The notes under the pieces were generated by a model. That model was not told the origin of the DNA, searched no databases, and saw nothing but the letters and a program-made list of their open reading frames with translations. The position numbers and the translations under genes are program-made. DNA of 64,000 nt. Origin: a virus. Shown in pieces: positions 51,498 to 61,971 of this stretch. The DNA lies in the IMG/VR virus record IMGVR_UViG_3300027644_000003, positions 35,470-99,469 of that record; one strand, written 5' to 3'. Every line of letters begins with the position of its first letter. Position 1 is the stretch's first letter.

Positions 51498-52064
51498 TTA
51501 TGCCTCTTGTATGTATGTATGAATCTCGCCACCCGAATAGATGTCATGCTTGCAGGCGATTTCAATTGCCCGTCTCACAGCCTTTTCGGCGGCCGCGGGT
51601 GTACTGATTTTTGAGTAGTTCAAAGCTTCAAGTGCGCCTAGTGCAACATCCCCACCACTACCAGCGTAGTAAACATTGCGGGCTTCTCTATCCCAAGAGT
51701 AATCGTTAAAGATCGGGTAGATGACACCTCTAATAGAAACAAGCAAGTTAGAGTCTTGCCACGCTGCATCGCCATCTTCTTTACCTTCAAAGCCAGCATC
51801 CTGGAAAGCTTTACGCATTGAGGGAATAAACTTCTTAGTCATAAAAGAATCTAAATCGATAGTTGCACTTGGCTTTGGTGGCTTCCAACCAAATTGGGTA
51901 ATGTTTCCACCTCTAGAAGCGCCGGAGACAGCTATCAGTACACCGTTATTATTAACAATCTTAGATGTAGCAAGTTCCATATAGCGACCATCTTCATCAG
52001 AGGCGCGGGAATCACAACCTATAACAGACCAGCCATCACCTTGGATTGCAACAAGCGTAGTCAT
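51498..52064 (-). CDS. HslV / proteasome-beta-like threonine peptidase
   Basis: N-terminal MTT, DSR, KI, GSGG..ALGAL and DIYSGG motifs. Confidence 0.9.
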   Translation of the reverse strand: MTTLVAIQGDGWSVIGCDSRASDEDGRYMELATSKIVNNNGVLIAVSGASRGGNITQFGWKPPKPSATIDLDSFMTKKFIPSMRKAFQDAGFEGKEDGDAAWQDSNLLVSIRGVIYPIFNDYSWDREARNVYYAGSGGDVALGALEALNYSKISTPAAAEKAVRRAIEIACKHDIYSGGEIHTYIQEA

Positions 52065-52099
52065 GAGATCCCCTCAGTTGATAGTGCAATCCTACAGTA

Positions 52100-52588
52100 C
52101 TACAGGCCAGATCCAAACTGGAACTCATCAGGCCTTTTGCGGGGGAGATTTGAGTAGTCAGTCTTACTCCAAGGTGCTCCATCTAGGTAAAGTGTAATAA
52201 AATCGTGGGTGGAGTCTGAGTTCTTCAAGATATCCCATAGGACAGCATCTACTCCATCGTACTGGATCATAGATCCGTCTCTCATGCCAATGACTAGTAC
52301 TTCCATCTCTTTATCTAGAGAGTAGCAAGCGTAATATGCTCTAGGTCGCGGACGTCCTAAGACGTCTGTCTTGCCAGATGTAGGAGCTGTTATATGTTCA
52401 TACCCAGGGCCACATGGATTAGAAGAGCTCATAGAAGAGAGCCGAGCTTCCCGTCCCTCTATTGTGGTATTAGAAGCTAGTTTGTCTTTCATCGCCTCTT
52501 GTACGTTTAATGCTACCTCGCCAGCTTGAGACTCTGATGACCGTCTTCTATTGTAATAGTTATCTAGATCTCGACCTCTACCGGCCAT
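52100..52588 (-). CDS. KTSC-like domain protein
   Basis: L.I..RDG....YDGV....W..L..SDS pattern. Confidence 0.6.
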   Translation of the reverse strand: MAGRGRDLDNYYNRRRSSESQAGEVALNVQEAMKDKLASNTTIEGREARLSSMSSSNPCGPGYEHITAPTSGKTDVLGRPRPRAYYACYSLDKEMEVLVIGMRDGSMIQYDGVDAVLWDILKNSDSTHDFITLYLDGAPWSKTDYSNLPRKRPDEFQFGSGL

Positions 52589-52700
52589 TATATTCCTCTT
52601 CCAAATGTTTTTCCTCGCACATGCGAGCTAAATCAGGAACTACATAGACTTTTCTACATAATTGACACGTCCAGCGTTCTAAACGCTCCCGATCATCCAT
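52578..52700 (-). CDS. Small Zn-finger protein (40 aa)
   Basis: Manual ORF containing WTCQLCRKVYVVPDLARMCEEKH. Confidence 0.6.
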   Translation of the reverse strand: MDDRERLERWTCQLCRKVYVVPDLARMCEEKHLEEEYNGR

Positions 52701-52813
52701 ATGTAGGCATCTTACTACTTGGCTACTGCCTTAGAAGCCTGTAGCTCCCCGAAATTTTTAGGCTACTGCCTCCCCGGTATAAGACTCAACAGTTTATTTC
52801 TCCTGGCCGAATA

Positions 52814-52888
52814 CGGACAAAACGGACATTTAAGGGTAGGGGGGGCAAAACGGACAAATCGGACAAATAAGAACAAAACGGACAAATA
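52814..52888. repeat. CGGACA(AAW) direct-repeat array at the strand switch
   Basis: CGGACA at 52814, 52823, 52851, 52860 and 52879, plus a degenerate copy at 52870. Confidence 0.85.
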
Positions 52889-52945
52889 AAATTATGGTGT
52901 AAGGCTTCAGAAGCAAAGGTTAGCAAGTAGGTAATCCTGTGTGCG

Positions 52946-52976
52946 GTGCCTAGTAGGTTCAACTCCTGCTAGGCAC
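52946..52976 (+). ncRNA. tRNA minihelix-like T-loop hairpin
   Basis: GTGCCTAGTAGG-TTCAACT-CCTGCTAGGCAC: 12-bp stem with 7-nt TPsiC-type loop. Confidence 0.7.
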
Positions 52977-53022
52977 ACGCTGTATTCGGTAGCCCTGTCT
53001 ATCAACAGCAGAAGGCATAACA

Positions 53023-53550
53023 ATGTCCGCACGCGAAAATCTGTCTGCGTTGCTCGCAACCCGTGGTAAGGGTGGCTCTCTAGAGTCCATCTCCCAAGCA
53101 GGGGCGCACTTCAACAAAGACAAGACACTCACCCCGTCTGACTTCATCTCGGTAGATAAGTTAGACGCATCTAAGGCAATCACACTACTAGGCGGGTTCG
53201 CCGTATCTACCTATGGGCTAGACCCAAAGGTGGCTTACTCAATGCGTAATGCGTTCGCTAAGAAGTATGCTCAGGTGGTCAATCTCTATGACCTATCACA
53301 AGCAGACTTCATCTCCGCAATTTCAGAGATAGATGCCGAGATTGCGACAGAAGCCTCTAACAAGGCTAACTTCGCTATCTCTATGGGCACAGAGCAAGAG
53401 CGTCTCATCAAGAACGCTCAATCTGCTATCGACAAGTTAGTAGATGCTAATGTGTCCCCAAAGGTCAAGCACGATTTGCTTACTCTTGCTCGCACCATTG
53501 AGCAGAAGTTGGCTTATGCGCCTGTCCAAAAAGTCGCACAAGTAGCCTAA
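53023..53550 (+). CDS. First early protein, hypothetical, helical
   Basis: 175 aa ORF with AGAAGG RBS. Confidence 0.8.
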   Translation: MSARENLSALLATRGKGGSLESISQAGAHFNKDKTLTPSDFISVDKLDASKAITLLGGFAVSTYGLDPKVAYSMRNAFAKKYAQVVNLYDLSQADFISAISEIDAEIATEASNKANFAISMGTEQERLIKNAQSAIDKLVDANVSPKVKHDLLTLARTIEQKLAYAPVQKVAQVA

Positions 53551-53557
53551 TAATAGC

Positions 53558-53980
53558 GAGAGGGGGGACTAGCTCCTCCCTCTCCCTATCTATGTCCACA
53601 GTATCCCTGTGGGCGTAGATGGGGTATGCCGACCAATCGGCTCACTCTGGTATGTAATGTGCCAGCCCCCGCACTAATGGATTACCTACAAGTGTCTTCT
53701 GTCTATCGAGAAGCCCTAGCCGTCCCCTTCACAATGTCGGCTAGGGCTTTCTCATCTCACAATGTGATACAACTCTCATCATAGATAATTGGCTACTGCT
53801 AATTGGCTAACTATGAGCATTGGGAGACACACCAGGTCTACGACTATGGTCTAGGTCTGTTATCAGGTAGGTTGTGGAAGATACATAGGACAACAGACTG
53901 AGACTCGTAAGGTGTTAATTTGTCTGTGTAGTGCGTAGGTCGCCCTTCCCTATGTATCTCTCACTCTCTATCTGGAGAGT
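53558..53980 (+). ncRNA. Multi-hairpin, pseudoknotted non-coding region
   Basis: At least eight stems found by eye; no ORF of 60 aa or more. Confidence 0.6.
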
Positions 53981-54000
53981 ATCTAACTAGGAGTAATAAA

Positions 54001-54171
54001 ATGACAGAATGTGCAGTTAGGTCTTGCAATAGCACTGAGTTAGTATTCAGTGGTGTTGACGCCTTTATGCTTGGTGGTATCCCTACCGAGAAGTATTGCT
54101 ATACCTGTGCTAATACCTATGTACAGATAGCAGACAGTATGAAACTAGAACACACCCACAACGCAACCTGA
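54001..54171 (+). CDS. Small Zn-finger protein (56 aa)
   Basis: Manual ORF with CAVRSC and CYTC; AGGAG RBS. Confidence 0.75.
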   Translation: MTECAVRSCNSTELVFSGVDAFMLGGIPTEKYCYTCANTYVQIADSMKLEHTHNAT

Positions 54172-54182
54172 AAGGCTATCTA

Positions 54183-54386
54183 ATGGATTGTATCTATTGC
54201 GGAAAGCCTGTAGTTCCTGCTAGATGGGAAGCAGGCTATGAGTATTGTATGGCTCCTGAGTGTGCTCACGAACTACGAGAGCGTGCTGAGCAATACAGAC
54301 TTATCCTTATGCCTAAGCAAGGCTTTACCTATGTCAAGGCTGATAGTCCTGACCTTCTATCTGGTAAGTCATCAGGTAGACAATAA
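54183..54386 (+). CDS. DksA/TraR C4-like Zn-finger protein
   Basis: CIYCGKPVVPARWEAGYEYCMAPEC. Confidence 0.65.
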   Translation: MDCIYCGKPVVPARWEAGYEYCMAPECAHELRERAEQYRLILMPKQGFTYVKADSPDLLSGKSSGRQ

Positions 54387-54415
54387 TCCCCCCCGATTTA
54401 TAAGAAAGGATCGTT

Positions 54416-54565
54416 ATGTTCACACTATCTGTAAAGATAGGCATTACCCGCAAGCCCCGCAAGCAGAAAGAGCTGACCAGTGTTGCTTGTTATCACTGTG
54501 GCAAGACCTTCACAATGCACATAAAGAACATCAGAACAAGCAATTACTGCACTAGTTGTAAGTAA
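54416..54565 (+). CDS. Small Zn-ribbon protein (49 aa)
   Basis: Manual ORF with CYHC and CTSC; GAAAGGA RBS. Confidence 0.75.
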   Translation: MFTLSVKIGITRKPRKQKELTSVACYHCGKTFTMHIKNIRTSNYCTSCK

Positions 54566-54589
54566 TACACCAATCCTTCCCCGCGAAGT

Positions 54590-54866
54590 TTGAGATGGAT
54601 AGAGGGCACACTGAATAGGCTGTTGATTGCATCGAGAACGAGGAATCTATGTGAGTGTAACTATTATCATAGAGGGAGCGTGAAGAAGCGAAGCAGTACG
54701 GACTTAGGTGCTTGAGGTGCCCAGAGGGAGATAGTTACCTACCTAAGTAATTACAGGACATGAACAAAAACAATCATGGTAATTGAATCTGTTATGCAAG
54801 AGGGGCTGTGGTTGTGAGTCTCACGCAATTCCTTCAGTAATTCAGTGTGTCCCCTATTTATCTCAA
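54590..54866 (+). ncRNA. 277-nt structured RNA closed by a 27-bp helix
   Basis: Closing helix has 23 Watson-Crick pairs, 3 G-U and 1 mismatch; internal kissing loop. Confidence 0.75.
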
Positions 54867-54894
54867 TCGAGGTAAATAAACAGAAGGGAAGACT

Positions 54895-54981
54895 ATGTAT
54901 ATCGAGTTCGAACCACAGACAATCGTAATCATCTGTATCTCACTAGTATTCATCGTTGCCATTAAAGCATGGCGTAAATAA
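54895..54981 (+). CDS. 28 aa single-TM peptide
   Basis: MYIEFEPQTIVIICISLVFIVAIKAWRK; AGAAGGG RBS. Confidence 0.7.
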   Translation: MYIEFEPQTIVIICISLVFIVAIKAWRK

Positions 54982-55008
54982 TTCCTCGAGAAGGGGATAC
55001 ACAGTGGC

Positions 55009-55215
55009 GACCAAGGTAATCCCACTACGGATAACAGCCATGCCCTCTGCGCTCCCGGCGCAACGGTATGGTGTAGACGCTTTCTACTTAAATGTTACTA
55101 CGCCTATGGGTGTGGAAAGTGCTGTGGTTGGTCAGACATGACCTGAGGTAAAACATGTCCCGAGCAACGGGGTATATCTGCGCCTCACCTGAGTATGTGA
55201 AAGCTAAACTGCTCA
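55009..55215 (+). ncRNA. Structured RNA with two tandem H-type pseudoknots
   Basis: GACCAA/TTGGTC multibranch; pseudoknots at 55130-55159 and 55185-55215. Confidence 0.55.
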
Positions 55216-55234
55216 CCTAACAGAAGGGATAACA

Positions 55235-55609
55235 ATGACTATAACCATAGTTGAATGCGCAAGATGTCAAGACCCACAAGTATTCAAGCCCATGTCTATG
55301 GACTCTGATATACCTGTTGCTTTAGACATATCATTAGATGGTGGTTACGCAATGTTCGTAGACAACATCTATGCTGAGGGTGGTAAGAACCCCCTGCAAT
55401 TCACATTGTGCCACAAGTGTGCCCACGAGTTTACAAAGTTCATGGGTATACCTGAGACCACAGTGTTTAACTGGCACTCAAATACAGAGGAGGAATACTG
55501 CAGTGGCTACACCAAAGAATGGTTTAACGAACAATACGATAAACAAATCGCTTACGTCAAAGAAAACTGGCACAAGCAATTCCCCAACAACCCATTCCCC
55601 AACGCTTGA
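55235..55609 (+). CDS. Zn-binding hypothetical protein
   Basis: CARC...LCHKCAH; AGAAGGG RBS. Confidence 0.8.
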   Translation: MTITIVECARCQDPQVFKPMSMDSDIPVALDISLDGGYAMFVDNIYAEGGKNPLQFTLCHKCAHEFTKFMGIPETTVFNWHSNTEEEYCSGYTKEWFNEQYDKQIAYVKENWHKQFPNNPFPNA

Positions 55610-55755
55610 AGAAATAAAGAAAGACCTGTTCATTGCCATTGAAGTTCTCAATGGTTATACAGAGCACGAAGCATTGCTAAACTGGCAATGCGTACAAGGT
55701 ACGTGCCAATGCTCGTAACCAACACAAACCCACACACCCCCGAAAGGAGCCTTCA

Positions 55756-56013
55756 ATGGCAGGGAAAAAATCAGGCGCTTCAAGAAATGATAGCCGCCCT
55801 AATGGAAAAGCATGGAAGCAAAATCCTGGCCCAGATGGAGTCAAATCCAAGTTTGTCTCTCGACCAGGTCGTATTAACGGTCGCAGTGCAAGCAACCATG
55901 AAAAGCGTGAAGCCTGGAAAGTATCAGGAGGTCGTGTTGACCACCCGACTATCCCACACTGGCGCACTGGCAAGGTAAGAAAGGAAGCAGTAAGTGTTTC
56001 CAATGACGCCTAG
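55756..56013 (+). CDS. Basic hypothetical protein
   Basis: GAAAGGAG RBS. Confidence 0.75.
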   Translation: MAGKKSGASRNDSRPNGKAWKQNPGPDGVKSKFVSRPGRINGRSASNHEKREAWKVSGGRVDHPTIPHWRTGKVRKEAVSVSNDA

Positions 56014-56191
56014 CCAATCATGGCTATTCCTGTTCTTATTGTTTTATTCAATAGGCATAACAACCTATGCATATGTATGGCGTAATAAATATTACGACCT
56101 ACAGTCTTATCGTATCTATGAGCGTAAACAACAAGCATATAAGCGCACACAGATGGACGAGTTATATTCAGAGTCATTTCTAAAAGACTAA
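55994..56191 (+). CDS. Small membrane protein
   Basis: N-terminal hydrophobic helix. Confidence 0.7.
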   Translation: MFPMTPSQSWLFLFLLFYSIGITTYAYVWRNKYYDLQSYRIYERKQQAYKRTQMDELYSESFLKD

Positions 56192-56193
56192 TC

Positions 56194-56416
56194 TTGCACG
56201 GGAGCGGGATGAACTGCGTTCAGAAAACTCCCCTCGTGAGTCCGCACCATCATGCGGAATACAAATGAGATGGAGCTTGTATAGATGTCAAAGTCTATGC
56301 AAGCACGTTGGGCAGAAGCATAATGATTAGCCAATAGAAACCGATCGAAGTCTCAGAGAAGATGGTATTTGGTCTAGCGGGTATCTCATGGAGAAACTAC
56401 TCCCGCCTATGTGCAA
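56194..56416 (+). ncRNA. 223-nt closed structured RNA
   Basis: TTGCAC/GTGCAA and GCGGGA/TCCCGC closing helices; internal 12-bp hairpin; loop-distal pairing. Confidence 0.65.
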
Positions 56417-56571
56417 CTTTTCAAAACACCAGAGACTAAATGCGTTTGCTGTTGACAGCACACCTCGGGGTAACTCCCACGTGTGCCGAGGCTAGAGTCA
56501 GGATAACCCCGTCAAAAGTGGTGCTTCTGTCCAACACAAACAACCCCCCAACACACAGAAGGGACAACAAC

Positions 56572-56853
56572 ATGTGGCTATCAAAGCGCAAGTTGATAAG
56601 CCGAATTGAGCGCATGATGGTCGAGCAGGAACTCGAACTCCATGACCTTGATTCGCAACACAGCAGGGCATACCATACCGGCATGATAGATGGCTTAGGT
56701 ATGGCACTCTTTGCAGTGTCACCAATTGCAGCAAGACGTAATCCAATCAGTATTGTATGGTTTGATGAAGATTACGACGAACCACGCAAAGTGGAACAAG
56801 ACAGAGAAACTCTGTTTGATGCAACTATGTTTGAAAGCGTAGAAGCAAGATGA
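56572..56853 (+). CDS. Hypothetical protein
   Basis: Start placed at ATG 56572 behind AGAAGGG RBS. Confidence 0.75.
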   Translation: MWLSKRKLISRIERMMVEQELELHDLDSQHSRAYHTGMIDGLGMALFAVSPIAARRNPISIVWFDEDYDEPRKVEQDRETLFDATMFESVEAR

Positions 56854-57566
56854 CCAGAGGTGCGTGGCACGTAACAGACTACGACACAGCTAAATCATAT
56901 CTATCGGGCGGTCACAAAAAATGGGATCGTCCTTTATATGTGCGAGGACTGCGTATTCAAAGTAGAAGCAAAGACATTGCTATCGTGGATAAATGGTACA
57001 ACTTTGAACCCATTTTGTTTCATCCCGATGGCACATTGACAATACAAGCACCTCAAGCAATACCAAACAATTGGGGTGGCACATGGAATCCTTTACGTTC
57101 ACAAGGTGTGCGAAGAAACTTCAAAGACTTCAGTGGACTACAAGGAATGTTTCAAAAGAATGGAACTGTATACATAACTACACAAGATGCTTTGAGGACA
57201 CCCTCAAAGATTCAAAAGTGTAGAACATGTCATGGACTTGGTTTAGTAGATAGTTGGTGTTCTCCATCATATTGTCAAAATGACTTTCCATGTAATGATC
57301 ACCCTGAATGGCAACCCAATGTTAGTTCTAGTAGTTATAGATGGCATTATGGTAATTGTCCACATGGTAACTCAGACAGTCACAGCGTTCCAAAATCACA
57401 AGACTGCTATCACTGCAAAGGTGTAGGGCTTCGTGAGTATGGTAACAACCTCATCTCTATTGCTTGGGATGGTTCCCCAATCAGGCTTAAAGATGGCAAC
57501 TTAGTAAAACAACCTCCAACCGAACTAGAGAAAAGGATCGCAGCGTATGTCCAACTTGACAGTTGA
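56850..57566 (+). CDS. Protein with DnaJ-type Zn-finger motifs
   Basis: CRTCHGLG and CYHCKGVG. Confidence 0.75.
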   Translation: MTRGAWHVTDYDTAKSYLSGGHKKWDRPLYVRGLRIQSRSKDIAIVDKWYNFEPILFHPDGTLTIQAPQAIPNNWGGTWNPLRSQGVRRNFKDFSGLQGMFQKNGTVYITTQDALRTPSKIQKCRTCHGLGLVDSWCSPSYCQNDFPCNDHPEWQPNVSSSSYRWHYGNCPHGNSDSHSVPKSQDCYHCKGVGLREYGNNLISIAWDGSPIRLKDGNLVKQPPTELEKRIAAYVQLDS

Positions 57567-58011
57567 TTACACTGGTGAAGCAGTACCAACGCAAGGTTTG
57601 GTGACCACGCCTAAAGAGGCTGCTCATCGAATTATGCTTGGTTATGTGCCAGCCAATCTAAAAGACCTAAGCACTAATACTCACTTCAGAGATACAGTGC
57701 TTGGTTACATATTGAGAGATACAACAGAGCACGACGTAGTGTTAGAAGTATTATGCTGTGCCCTACGTCATGCAGCAGAAGAAGCAGATATCCGTATGTA
57801 TAGCGAGTATGTAGCAGCAGTTGCTTACTCGTGGGAACATCCAACTCTTGCGCTAAAAGCAATCTCTCGCAACAAGCCTACAAACGCAACCACCTTCATT
57901 TGGTCAGTGGCTCAGGCGATGTACAAGAAAATGCCTGGGCCTTTCTATCAAACTCTAATTGTTTCTCAATTAGAACAAAGCGAACAGCAATGGGCTAACA
58001 CCACGCCATAA
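57547..58011 (+). CDS. DUF4192-like protein
   Basis: FRDTVLG motif, helical; paralogous to 62481-62987. Confidence 0.55.
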   Translation: MSNLTVDYTGEAVPTQGLVTTPKEAAHRIMLGYVPANLKDLSTNTHFRDTVLGYILRDTTEHDVVLEVLCCALRHAAEEADIRMYSEYVAAVAYSWEHPTLALKAISRNKPTNATTFIWSVAQAMYKKMPGPFYQTLIVSQLEQSEQQWANTTP

Positions 58012-58027
58012 CCGTTCCAACACAAAC

Positions 58028-58260
58028 ATTCACACGACAAGAAGCACTCGGCAAAATACTTAACTCGACCCAAGCCGGAACGCAATAACAATGGGCCGTG
58101 GGAAGATGGTTGAAGGTGACTAACTGGTCCAACTAACCGCTTCCGCGAGCGAATCAATTCATTTGAGCAGGCCCGTAGTAGCTAAGATTTCAGTCCCTTT
58201 TGTCCTTCGTGCGTAACTCTTGTGAATACCTCGGGGCAGGTCTTATTGACCTGCCTCGGG
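58028..58260 (+). ncRNA. Structured intergenic RNA plus 13-bp hairpin
   Basis: ATTCAC/GTGAAT closure, ATGGGCC/GGCCCGT inner stem, hairpin 58230-58260. Confidence 0.5.
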
Positions 58261-58288
58261 GAACTTAACCTACTAGAAGGGAACCATA

Positions 58289-58534
58289 ATGTCTATGTTT
58301 TTTCCAGACCACGACCACAATGACGACACGCCAGATTTTGAAAACCTGTCTCCTGTTGAAAAGCAAGAGTTCTATGACTATATTACGAAGCAAATGAATT
58401 TGATTATACAAAAAGCAGAAACACAAGGAGTGCTGTTTGATTTAATTACAAAATGGCCCCACGATAAGCAGGTAGCGTATGAGATGGCTACCGTAATTGA
58501 GAACCGCGTCCTAGAAGACGACGACGAACGCTAA
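58289..58534 (+). CDS. Acidic hypothetical protein
   Basis: 81 aa ORF; AGAAGGG RBS. Confidence 0.75.
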   Translation: MSMFFPDHDHNDDTPDFENLSPVEKQEFYDYITKQMNLIIQKAETQGVLFDLITKWPHDKQVAYEMATVIENRVLEDDDER

Positions 58535-58609
58535 GTTTCCTTAACAAATTGTTAGGGAATGTCATAGCAATATGACAAACGATTCCATTACCAAAGAAGG
58601 GGTAAAGAT

Positions 58610-60052
58610 ATGGATATCGCTGTATTCACAGAGTCGTACGAACCAATCATGGGGGCTAAGCGCCGTCAGGTTCTTATCACTCCACATGATGGAAATGTAC
58701 GAATCTACTCACGTGATACTGACGGGACTAAGGGTCCTCACAACAAGTGGGAGGAAACTGACCTCGACACTATCACTGGACAGATAGGTACTGATGAAAA
58801 GCTAACACGTGAACCTGTTGCTGTATATGTTACATCAGCAGACGAACGTGCTATGACGGACAAAGGTTATTCCCCGGTCCTCGGCACCAAGGCGTGTCAA
58901 GCACATACTAAAGCAGGACTCAACACGGATACTACGCCATTTGTAGAACGCTTATGCGAAATCTACGAAGCGGTAAGTAACCATGATGATTCTCTTGAAA
59001 ACCATGTGATTGACAATCGTCGTATGCCAGGCTTACCTGTTCCGCTAGCATCAGCACCAACACAAACAACGCCAGCACCTACCGCAACACCATTTGTAGA
59101 GCCTGTTGTTCAAGCAACAAGTACATCAAACGGCGCAGTAATAACCGCAGCGCTTGCTTCAGTGCCACGCATTGAACTAGCAAAACGTTATGTGCATCGT
59201 GATATCTGGTCCCGCCAGGACTTTGAAATCTTTGATTACTCTCGTGCTAAAAGCATCAACGTTCTTATCTACGGCCCTACCGGCCCAGGTAAAACTACAT
59301 CTGTTGAAGCATGGGCTGCTGAACGCAATTTACCTATGGCAACAGTATCTGGTAACGCTTCAATGGAGCCAAGCCAAATGACTGGTAAATATGTATCTGA
59401 TGGCAATGGTTCATTTGCATGGATCGATGGCCCAGTTACAGATGTTGTTCGTAATGGTGGTGTCTTATTACTCGACGAGGTTAACTTCATCAGTCCTAAG
59501 ATCTACACTGTTCTATATTCATTGCTAGATGGTCGTCGTTCTATCACACTGTTGGATCACCATGGTGAAACTATTGAGGCTCATCCAGACCTCACTATCT
59601 TCGCTACTATGAATCCAGATTACATTGGTACAACGCCGCTCAACTTTGCATTCCGCAATCGTTTTGATATCCAGATTCCATGGGATTACGACGATAAGGT
59701 CGAGTCTAAACTAGTCTCCTCCAAGGCTTTGCTTGTAGTTGCTAAACAACTACGCGTTGAAGCTAACAAAGGTCAATACGAGACACCAATCTCAACCAAC
59801 ATGCTGCAAGAGTTCGTTAACTTTGTTGACCCTCTTGGCTACGAGTTCGCAGTGGAAAACTTCATTGCTCACTTTAGTTCTGACGAAGCAGCAAGCGTTC
59901 GATTGGTATTTCAGACACACGAACACAATATCAAGACAGACTTTGGTATTGAAATCCCAATAACTCTTGAGAAAGAGTCTGAAGGAAAATCTCCTGAAGA
60001 ACTTCTTAAAGAGTGGGCAGGACAATACGGAGCAGTTAACGGATTGGTATAA
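58610..60052 (+). CDS. MoxR/CobS-like AAA+ ATPase
   Basis: GPTGPGKT, LLDEVN, ATMNP and NRF motifs. Confidence 0.93.
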   Translation: MDIAVFTESYEPIMGAKRRQVLITPHDGNVRIYSRDTDGTKGPHNKWEETDLDTITGQIGTDEKLTREPVAVYVTSADERAMTDKGYSPVLGTKACQAHTKAGLNTDTTPFVERLCEIYEAVSNHDDSLENHVIDNRRMPGLPVPLASAPTQTTPAPTATPFVEPVVQATSTSNGAVITAALASVPRIELAKRYVHRDIWSRQDFEIFDYSRAKSINVLIYGPTGPGKTTSVEAWAAERNLPMATVSGNASMEPSQMTGKYVSDGNGSFAWIDGPVTDVVRNGGVLLLDEVNFISPKIYTVLYSLLDGRRSITLLDHHGETIEAHPDLTIFATMNPDYIGTTPLNFAFRNRFDIQIPWDYDDKVESKLVSSKALLVVAKQLRVEANKGQYETPISTNMLQEFVNFVDPLGYEFAVENFIAHFSSDEAASVRLVFQTHEHNIKTDFGIEIPITLEKESEGKSPEELLKEWAGQYGAVNGLV

Positions 60053-60054
60053 CT

Positions 60055-61971
60055 ATGTACATTGAAGAACTAGAACAGCACTGGGGTGATGCCCGGACTG
60101 AAGATACACAGCAACGTTCTGTTCGACTCAATGCACTATGTCGTGTATACGAACAGGCTGACCGTGTACTCACGGGTGACCCAGTCACAGTCAATGTAGT
60201 GCCTAACGGCCCCGCACCAGCGTGGTCTGATGGTGCATCTATTTACATCAACCTTGATCAAATTGAGGAGATGGACTTAGAAACATTAACACAGGTTAAC
60301 GGTCTCAATTACCATGAGCTAGCCCATCACCTGTATACGCCTCGCAAAGGCACAGAACTAATCAAGTGGGTCATTGATAAAAAATACTTCCAAGCCTTTA
60401 ACATCTTGGAAGATCAACGTATCGAGACTCTCTTAGTTGGTAGATATCCATCTATTGCGCCATACCTAACAGCAACAGTTGCTCGTTGGTTAGGTGCATC
60501 AGAAGATGTCAATGGTAACTATGTCTGCATACGTGGCCGTCGTTACTTACCTGTTGAAATTAGACAAGCATTCCGTGACGAGTTTGCCTTCCCTGAACTA
60601 ATACCAACAATAATTAGAATCGTAGATGAGTATCGATTGCTAGCGTTTCCACAAGGATACGCACGAGCACAAGAACTAATCGAAGAGTTCTATGATGAAG
60701 TATGCCTACCAATGGGCTTACTACCTGAGATGGATGGTGGCCCCAACAAGTGTGGTGGTCGTGATCCAGTATCAAAAGGCAGACCTGAACCTGGTAAGGC
60801 TCAGGAGAAAGACGCTCAACGAGCAGCAGGTATGGGTACTAAAGAATCTACTTATGTACCTAAACCTAAAACTAATGAGAGCCCATCTTCAGATAACAAT
60901 GGACTATCTGATATGCCTACCAACACAAACCCAAACGATGACGGCAATGGATCTAATCCATCTACCACATCTGCGCCACGCTCTGTCCAAGAAGCATTGG
61001 ACATACGAGAGCAAAATATAAATACATCCTCAATAACACCCGGAACAGGACATGCTCCTAGTCTTGGTGGTTTACCTGACAAAATCAATGACATGCTAAA
61101 TACAGCAATTGATGAAGTGCTTGAACGTAAAGATGTACAAGCAGACGTCAAAACAAAACAGCGTGTAATTGTAGGTGGAGATGGTAAACACGAGGATATA
61201 ACTAAGAAAGGTAAATTCAATGATACAAGCGTTCCCCAAGACGCAATAATCTCTTATCGCAAGTTTGCTAAAGAGTTACAGCGTTTACGCGATGATTCAG
61301 AACCTACGTGGCAAAGAGAAACCCCTACAGGTCGACTCAATGTACAACGTGTAATCAGAGGTTGCGAAATTGATCAATCCTTTGATAGGTGGGACGAAGG
61401 TGATGATGGCTGTGATATCGAAGCAGTTATCCTTGTCGACCGTTCAGGTTCTATGTCTAGTCAACAGAATGATAAAAAAGCATCTATCGCTTGCTGGACT
61501 ATCAAACGTGCGCTAGAACATATACAAGCCCCAGTCACCGTCTATGCCTTTGATGATAAAGCAGAAGTTGCTTATACTCGTAATGAGCGTGCATCTAAAA
61601 CTCAATACAAGTTCATCTATGGTAATGGTGGTACAGAACCGTACCCAACCTTGCTTGCTGCCGAACAGTTACTTATGGCTTCGCGTAAGAAGAATAAGAT
61701 GCTGTTCATTGTTACCGATGGTGTGTTCAACACAAACAAAAACGACGAACTAATTGAACGCATTACCCGTCGCGGTATCTTGACATCTATGATTCTTATC
61801 ATGGAGGATAAAGAATGGAAATACTATGTAGAAGACCATAACCAACTCACTCAAGAGCAGTTACGGCACAAAGCAGAAGTATTTGCCCGTATCAATACTG
61901 CCAAAGACTTACTCCCATTTGCTAAACAAGTGGTAGTCAGTGCCATCAAAAAACGCTCGAGAATGAGATAG
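60055..61971 (+). CDS. CobT-like VWA protein with N-terminal metallopeptidase motif
   Basis: HELAH, FNILEDQRIE, MIDAS DRSGS, GGT and VTDG motifs. Confidence 0.92.
   Translation: MYIEELEQHWGDARTEDTQQRSVRLNALCRVYEQADRVLTGDPVTVNVVPNGPAPAWSDGASIYINLDQIEEMDLETLTQVNGLNYHELAHHLYTPRKGTELIKWVIDKKYFQAFNILEDQRIETLLVGRYPSIAPYLTATVARWLGASEDVNGNYVCIRGRRYLPVEIRQAFRDEFAFPELIPTIIRIVDEYRLLAFPQGYARAQELIEEFYDEVCLPMGLLPEMDGGPNKCGGRDPVSKGRPEPGKAQEKDAQRAAGMGTKESTYVPKPKTNESPSSDNNGLSDMPTNTNPNDDGNGSNPSTTSAPRSVQEALDIREQNINTSSITPGTGHAPSLGGLPDKINDMLNTAIDEVLERKDVQADVKTKQRVIVGGDGKHEDITKKGKFNDTSVPQDAIISYRKFAKELQRLRDDSEPTWQRETPTGRLNVQRVIRGCEIDQSFDRWDEGDDGCDIEAVILVDRSGSMSSQQNDKKASIACWTIKRALEHIQAPVTVYAFDDKAEVAYTRNERASKTQYKFIYGNGGTEPYPTLLAAEQLLMASRKKNKMLFIVTDGVFNTNKNDELIERITRRGILTSMILIMEDKEWKYYVEDHNQLTQEQLRHKAEVFARINTAKDLLPFAKQVVVSAIKKRSRMR

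Follow-up and report, generated by a model that had tools for sequence, protein, structure and literature searches.

The last 64 kb of the single-contig, 99,469-bp virus genome IMGVR_UViG_3300027644_000003 (hereinafter the window) raise the question of what is encoded in the long gaps that separate the small genes at the head of its plus-strand gene block. Up to ~52,700 the genes of the window lie on the minus strand (including those for terminase, portal and an HslV-like peptidase; DNA polymerase A, SNF2 and DnaB are encoded further left in the genome), and from 53,023 to the contig end they lie on the plus strand, this block opening with thirteen small ORFan genes that are followed by an AAA_5/VWA pair. 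An initial annotation of the window had proposed that the gaps fold into large RNAs closed by long-range stems. Using comparisons with related phages, we found that the gaps hold at least six unrelated, evolutionarily kept folded RNA domains of up to ~300 nt, and that RNA structure makes up about a third of the 5.6-kb operon. The intervals in question are the following:

52890-53022, plus strand: leader U, upstream of a 175-aa gene
53551-54000, plus strand: gap A, between real plus-strand genes
54566-54894, plus strand: gap B, between real plus-strand genes
54982-55234, plus strand: gap C, between real plus-strand genes
56192-56571, plus strand: gap D, its right edge set by the gene start at 56572
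58012-58288, plus strand: gap E, between real plus-strand genes

The edge of gap D reflects a comparison with relatives, which places the true start of the 137-aa open reading frame (ORF) called at 56440 at 56572.

Conserved plus-strand RNA structures in the gaps

Through protein-guided scans of IMG/VR and JGI lake metagenomes we recovered ~70 related loci (labelled L0xx), and each gap is kept in 10-35 distinct related freshwater phage contigs. The conservation of the gaps sometimes exceeds that of the flanking genes: for instance, in L008/L058 the DNA of the 175-aa gene (p175) is 71% identical and the other genes are 77-79% identical, as against 95% for 53692-53889 and 95% for 55124-55217. 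Three-nucleotide periodicity is absent from the gaps (chi-square p 0.38-0.98), and their indels are mostly not multiples of three; among the coding controls from the same loci, eight of nine show strong periodicity (p down to 8e-12; the remaining one covers two overlapping genes), and every indel is a multiple of three. Given the absent periodicity, the out-of-phase indels and the conservation in relatives, the gaps are non-coding and under selection. The lack of coding potential noted in the initial annotation is thereby borne out, and hidden small genes are ruled out by periodicity and indel phase.

That annotation had also described the departures from perfect complementarity as mostly G-U-compatible on the plus strand, and cell counts in the plus-strand consensus structures of all five elements agree: G-U cells far outnumber A-C cells in A (98:3), B (149:5), C (61:1), D (75:7) and E (53:6), which points to plus-strand RNA. 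The structure conservation index likewise favors the plus strand over the minus strand, and it exceeds that of coding controls (0.56-0.84 versus 0.19-0.53). Folding stability relative to shuffled sequence, which had been suggested as a check, provided no support. Single-sequence folding z-scores were -6.9 for A, -3.8 for B, -1.8 for C, -3.8 for D and -2.8 for E, and those of 16 coding windows on the same strand ranged from +1.1 to -4.6, leaving A as the sole outlier among the gaps; in the summary set against these windows the gaps stand at -1.7 to -3.6 and A at -7 to -8. Since coding windows of the same genome score equally low, we rejected these z-scores as evidence; as folding energy does not discriminate gaps from genes, the case rests on covariation in relatives. 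This covariation supports conserved multi-helix structures of plus-strand RNA with tertiary contacts, and together with the gene that they surround the structures are arranged as follows:

52927-52946, plus strand: 5' strand of a clamp helix, pairing with 53669-53689 across the entire 175-aa gene
52946-52976, plus strand: leader hairpin in the p175 leader, with a 12-bp stem and a T-loop-like 7-nt loop, UUCAACU
53023-53550, plus strand: p175 gene (175 aa), with coding periodicity, enclosed by the clamp
53555-83 and 53584-621, plus strand: two strong hairpins right after the p175 stop, present in the minimum free energy structure and kept in relatives
53669-53689, plus strand: 3' strand of the clamp, complementary to 52927-52946
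53692-53863, plus strand: A-core, a strongly conserved block that includes a 14-bp hairpin (53708-21/53739-53)
53864-53974, plus strand: irregular rod hairpin of ~25 bp (53864-89/53949-74), an inverted repeat ending just 5' of the next gene's ribosome-binding site (RBS)
54576-54878, plus strand: RNA B (~300 nt), with a small 5' hairpin, a closing rod, six inner helices, a kissing loop and an alternative 3' hairpin
54982-55122, plus strand: 5' half of C, four to five hairpins, in some relatives only
55123-55217, plus strand: C3 module, with a hairpin (55130-43), a helix (55144-48/55183-87) around hairpin 55159-71, and a second hairpin (55190-215)
56236-56535, plus strand: RNA D, with two hairpins on its 5' side (56236-62, 56275-304) and then a domain whose closing strands are 56307-32 and 56490-535
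58028-58260, plus strand: RNA E, a domain closed by 58028-37/58218-27, then a terminal hairpin (58230-43/58247-60) just 5' of the RBS

In RNA B the closing rod joins 54590-54637 to 54819-54866 by 38 bp, and the six inner helices covary. In an RNAalifold alignment of 15 distinct sequences with 77 pairs, 97.7% of pair cells are standard, versus 35-42% when the 3' partners are slid, and double changes occur at 23 pairs, versus 3-9 after sliding and 14.2 ± 2.2 after shuffling (none of 500 shuffles reaches 23). The stem 54590-54616/54840-54866 that had been predicted at the ends of this element is real: the rod is invariant in the close clade and covaries against the diverged copies of L030, L065 and L027 (e.g., CTGAAT/ATTCAG becoming C-GCAT/ATGC-G, and GATTG/CAATT becoming TATTA/TAATT). 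Within the domain, the loops of hairpins 54646-73 and 54702-48 pair with each other as a kissing loop that covaries across three sequence versions (GUAACUAU/AUAGUUAC; GGAACUAU/AUAGUUUC; GGCUA(A)/UUAG(U)CC or GGAUUUAG/CUAAAU(U)CC). At the 3' end, the final 10 nt in the 3' arm of the rod (54855-64) can pair either with 54592-601, as part of the rod, or with 54869-78, forming a hairpin that ends beside the Shine-Dalgarno (SD) sequence; these two pairings are mutually exclusive and both covary. In addition, the word ACGGAC is invariant within RNA B.

RNA D is closed by a rod of 22 bp, which includes the supported closure 56307-19/56523-35. Over 17 aligned sequences and 68 pairs, 97.6% of cells are paired versus 33-49% when slid, and 13 pairs have double changes, a count that 0/500 shuffles reach. 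The boundaries originally drawn for this element, 56194-56416, had to be abandoned: their closure (56194-209/56401-416) amounts to 7 bp that do not vary, and divergent copies lose this pairing. We detected RNA D solely in relatives with a gene for a 65-aa protein with a single transmembrane segment (55994-56191) directly upstream; in relatives lacking both, gene b85 is joined to p93 by a gap of ~50 nt. RNA D and the 65-aa gene may form one unit.

For RNA E, which is found in the distant relatives L065 and L068 too, the predicted closing helix 58028-37/58218-27 is confirmed by double changes at seven of its ten pairs, and the 14-bp terminal hairpin has double changes at 4/14 pairs. The element previously placed at 55009-55215 stands in its C3 half, which forms a covarying pseudoknot, and its 5' half is present in some relatives only (8 sequences, 88% identity, few informative changes). 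The C3 pseudoknot is of the H type (55130-55187), the loop of hairpin 55159-71 pairing with 55179-81, and across 18 distinct copies (88-95% identity) the loop and its downstream partner change together (GCA/UGC, GACA/UGUC, UAGCA/UGCUA, AAGCA/UGCUU). A second candidate pseudoknot in C3 (GACAUG/CAUGUC) is maintained in part only, and we set it aside.

The structure expected within 53765-53980 proved to be the rod 53864-89/53949-74, whose stem covaries in 12 relatives (AGAUACAUAGG/CCUAUGUAUCU; AGACACAUCUG/CAGGUGUGUCU; AGGCACAUCUG/CAGGUGUGCCU; and other versions); it bears a hypervariable insert at its tip and is present in two copies in L030 and L066. The A-core is 94-95% identical in L008/L055, as against 71% for the p175 DNA; its hairpin exposes CCCCUUC in the loop and is paired in 209/209 cells, with double changes at 2 pairs. 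The long-range stem proposed between 52927 and 53689 is likewise real. Each of the five relatives examined has complementary boxes of 12-14 nt that lie ~750 nt apart, and two sub-clades differ entirely in the box sequences (GTAGGTAATCC/GGATTACCTAC; ATAACAGCAGGC/GCCTGCTGTTAT; ACAGCAGCAGACT/AGTCTGCTGCTGT); the boxes recur in the window, L006, L056, L031 and L058, and the clamp measures 17 bp (11+6 bp). Next to its 5' strand, the stem of the leader hairpin covaries in 5/5 aligned relatives and the loop keeps the consensus U(U/G)C(A/G)A(C/U)U; ARAGORN does not call this hairpin (52946-76) a tRNA, the likeness extending only to a T-arm-like loop on a 12-bp stem. Four lake metatranscriptomes show p175, the clamped gene, as by far the region's most abundant RNA, its contigs having a depth of 50-67 as against 3-15 downstream. 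Its product is an ORFan with an all-helical AlphaFold model (predicted local distance difference test score 76), for which Pfam, PHROGs, ESM Atlas, a PDB sequence search and Foldseek with that model gave no family or informative fold match.

Modularity and transcription

Homology with close relatives breaks exactly at the module edges, where the relatives have extra genes (insertions at 54874/54895, 55220/55235 and 52731/52757, the last of ~750 bp). Between B and the gene for a 28-aa peptide, relatives carry unrelated ORFans of 166-223 aa, and behind C3 they carry WhiB or a 121-aa ORFan. The positions of the modules are largely syntenic, with some moves in distant relatives: B follows a 124-aa gene (p124) in L030 and L065, and C3 stands directly before B in L030. 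B is present both with and without the 49-aa Zn-ribbon gene. The modules end 10-40 nt 5' of a strong SD (AGAAGGGA) and a start codon and, as the downstream gene differs between phages, they are not gene-specific; they act as portable units where these phages swap accessory genes. WhiB is the sole family match among the cassette genes: in L003 (8765-9013) a gene of this family (PF02467, E 2e-12) lies behind C3, filling a cassette slot that holds no gene in the window. With this gene of one relative as the basis, the host of the clade is probably actinobacterial.

The stretch is present in twenty public runs from 16 studies, six of these runs being lake metatranscriptomes. In four RNA runs, contig depth is zero at 52005-52671, 23-34 over p175 and 3-27 elsewhere, and this very uneven depth argues for RNA and not carried-over DNA; the region is transcribed. 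RNA contigs bridge elements C and D and the adjacent genes (X11, 54875-55601; X9, 56169-57555; X8, 56207-58166), and their depth over the elements is not above that over the flanking genes, these data being assembled contigs, a poor measure of abundance. Contigs from three studies end at 53547, for which strain variation is a possible cause. This end and those at 54875/54892, 56169/56207 and 58166/58180 were considered as processing sites and discounted, because they fall at junctions that vary between strains and at which assemblies break. With 16 studies holding the stretch, these phages count as common in lakes, which opens their expression to study in public data and, for cultured hosts, at the bench.

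Known RNAs and possible roles

The elements were described at the outset as unrelated to one another and to known RNA classes, and both statements hold. By nhmmer they are single-copy per genome with no cross-matches, which rejects paralogy between them. Rfam 15 covariance models at gathering thresholds (covering riboswitches, ribozymes, 6S/Ms1, tmRNA, RNase P, Y RNA, ToxI, group I/II introns, GOLLD/ROOL/raiA and others) gave 0 matches in the 64 kb; at E up to 5 there was nothing usable and no riboswitch, the best being sar (RF00262) with 27.9 bits against a threshold of 43, on hairpin 53708-53753. ARAGORN found neither tRNA nor tmRNA in the window, and blastn of the region against 50,697 GenBank phages gave no match. 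The exact core pattern of B was matched in 7 viral contigs and that of C3 in 11, and scans with such patterns found 0 copies of either in 185,579 prokaryote genomes, a search that distant mimics would escape. Type III antitoxin RNAs of the ToxI/CptI kind are tandem identical repeats of 34-45 nt beside an endoribonuclease toxin gene; C3 was considered for this class and rejected, its two units differing in length and sequence, with no toxin family among the neighbours and no Rfam match. A catalog of 10,006 candidate structured RNAs has been predicted from IMG/VR, with no function given for such motifs (Fremin, Bhatt, Kyrpides 2023, PMC10690425); the RNAs described here share with it the data source, the kind of evidence (conservation and covariation) and the frequent position upstream of genes.

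We tentatively favor a role in cis, to which we give slightly less than an even chance: the gaps would encode autonomous folding domains that act on the operon's own transcripts, as portable modules of mRNA architecture that combine double-stranded RNA processing or stability clamps with translation gating. Four long, irregular helices with conserved sequence would be RNase III-type processing or stability signals, namely the p175 clamp (17 bp), the 53864-53974 rod (~25 bp), the B rod (38 bp) and the D rod (22 bp), and cutting at these long helices would split the transcript into units with base-paired, protected ends. Some modules would also gate translation of the following gene via mutually exclusive pairings beside the SD; in B, the 3' arm of the rod would switch to the covarying hairpin directly 5' of the RBS. 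With the function carried by the module itself, gene cassettes could be swapped behind it, and such swapping would explain why modules sit at cassette junctions and move as units. We favor this cis role because the modules lie before strong SDs, include long irregular helices (among them a clamp around the most abundant mRNA), have in B an alternative 3' pairing, and are independent of gene identity. Contigs that bridge elements and genes at similar depth are what would be expected if the elements are parts of mRNAs. If the cis role is right, these phages would have a way to insulate, stabilize and gate arbitrary cargo genes, which bears on mosaic evolution and on engineering parts.

There is precedent for such processing: host RNase III cuts the early mRNAs of phage T7 at irregular intercistronic hairpins, and pre-rRNAs are excised at long-range stems. 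Like the T7 signals and the stems of 16S/23S pre-rRNA, the present elements are intercistronic in a co-directional operon, have irregular helices of ~20-40 bp with conserved internal loops, and are followed by the next RBS; the p175 clamp, moreover, resembles the pre-rRNA stems in being a helix formed from sequences on either side of a whole gene. Intercistronic irregular helices of at least about two turns, as in the T7-type sites, are found in the rods 53864-89/53949-74, 54590-54637/54819-66 and 56307-32/56490-535. T7 RNase III sites are simple hairpins of ~50-60 nt, whereas the helices here have between their strands 150-220 nt of conserved structure made up of several helices and tertiary contacts; the probable host, moreover, is an actinobacterium and not E. 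coli.

Several points weigh against the cis role. Neither an RNase III site nor an SD-masking hairpin would need nearly as much conserved tertiary structure as B, D and E hold (kissing loops, multiway junctions, invariant unpaired stretches); with 10 bp in the E closure and 11+6 bp in the clamp, these two helices are shorter than the T7-type rods and short for RNase III; SD masking is convincing in B only; the contig breaks at 53547, 54875 and 56207 lie at strain-variable junctions and are perhaps assembly artefacts; and the actinobacterial host is deduced solely from WhiB in a relative.

It is this richness of the inner domains, beyond what a cis role needs, that keeps alive a second explanation, in our estimate less likely but a serious rival: the inner domains of B, D and E, possibly with the A-core and C3, would be freed from the transcript as trans-acting non-coding RNAs that bind or titrate host machinery or defence proteins, and would in effect be early gene products that consist of RNA. 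Their size of ~300 nt, the kissing loop, the pseudoknot and the invariant single-stranded blocks fit such a role, as do a sequence conservation above that of the neighbouring proteins, the indifference to which genes flank them, closing helices that would permit excision, and a neighbourhood made up entirely of ORFans, as in takeover regions. On the other side stand a contig depth over the elements that does not exceed that of the flanking genes and contigs that run on into those genes (with the caveat on contigs given above), the absence of any copy or mimic in the exact-pattern scans of prokaryote genomes, and the lack of an identified partner protein. Nor did we recognize a promoter or terminator belonging to the elements, a sigma-70-like scan showing no enrichment.

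RNAs of ~300 nt with covariation-backed tertiary contacts are rarely found, and OLE, GOLLD, ROOL, raiA and HEARO each started a research line. Like the large non-coding RNAs GOLLD, ROOL, raiA and OLE (see the cryo-electron microscopy study bioRxiv 10.1101/2024.12.08.627333), the present elements are large, ornate, covarying RNAs of lake metagenomes and phages with kissing loops, a group whose function was not known when discovered; B and D differ in being smaller (300-345 nt), in lying between protein genes and not beside tRNAs, in their restriction to one phage clade and in having no Rfam match. Action in trans, if borne out, would make the elements phage effectors of a new class. A bolder form of this idea, which we hold to be more doubtful still, is that the operon is largely a cluster of RNA genes, with B, D, E and perhaps the A-core and C3 excised at their closing helices as free RNAs that each engage a different host machine or defence system; in that case, phages that infect abundant freshwater bacteria would possess a host-takeover toolkit made of RNA, for which no counterpart has been described.

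A third explanation, which we judge improbable, would make the elements riboswitch-like leaders that respond to a ligand or protein, or operators for the adjacent small Zn-ribbon or basic proteins, and that control the downstream gene. The domains are indeed closed by a P1-like helix just upstream of the RBS, the alternative pairings at the 3' end of B covary and exclude each other, and genes for small Zn-ribbon and basic proteins alternate with the RNAs. However, a riboswitch governing genes of one pathway is not what we found: B and C3 precede genes that vary by relative and encode WhiB or ORFans with no relation to one another. Furthermore, at least five new classes in 5.6 kb would be implausible for metabolite sensors, the elements are larger than typical aptamers and without an Rfam riboswitch match even at the relaxed threshold, and B occurs irrespective of the 49-aa Zn-ribbon gene.

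As to elements acting in the DNA itself, the PeSLs of T4-type phages are short and multi-copy, with one consensus that combines an early promoter and a short stem-loop (PMC2839356, PMC4122927). The elements described here are like them in being conserved non-coding sequences at junctions where phages gain, lose or swap small genes, and unlike them in being 95-345 nt long, single-copy and mutually unrelated, with covariation of the RNA type. That the elements are PeSL-like recombination linkers, cassettes akin to miniature inverted-repeat transposable elements (MITEs) or attC sites, or single-stranded DNA structures, with the RNA folds incidental, is very improbable, because their place at cassette junctions, the 27-nt terminal inverted repeats of B and an above-gene conservation that could stem from recombination among co-infecting relatives are set against single-copy elements without a shared consensus, covarying inner helices, kissing loop and pseudoknot, a G-U excess over A-C that fits plus-strand RNA, mostly syntenic positions, no target-site duplication at the B flanks, and inserted cassettes that bring no repeat or site of their own.

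Neighbouring genes and repeats

Beside the control region and the RNAs are encoded four tiny Zn-ribbon-like proteins with the CxxC...CxxC pattern (40, 56, 67 and 49 aa; 52578-52700, minus strand, and 54001-54565, plus strand). These proteins gave a single weak Pfam hint, Zn_ribbon_Brz, below threshold, and apart from this hint the neighbouring small proteins matched no Pfam or PHROGs family. A Pfam search of twenty other ORFs of the genome, aimed at RNA enzymes, returned replication and nucleotide genes only. The small-gene block ends at 58610-61971 with a CobS/CobT-like pair, in which the gene for an AAA_5 ATPase precedes that for a VWA-domain protein.

A divergent control region separates the minus-strand operon from p175 and contains, at 52805-52889, at least six direct repeats of ACGGACAAA with a phasing of ~9-10 bp. 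They are kept in relatives, and the array looks like an operator or iteron array. A different motif, CCTATNTATCT, showed no enrichment. Allowing at most one mismatch, CCAACACAAAC occurs 19 times in the window versus 1.65 expected, mostly on the sense strand, and it does not occur in the first 35 kb of the genome. Its intergenic copies (55719, 56531, 58017, and 38803 and 50381 on the minus strand) are sited between a structured RNA and the next RBS, and the motif may be a CA-rich translation leader.

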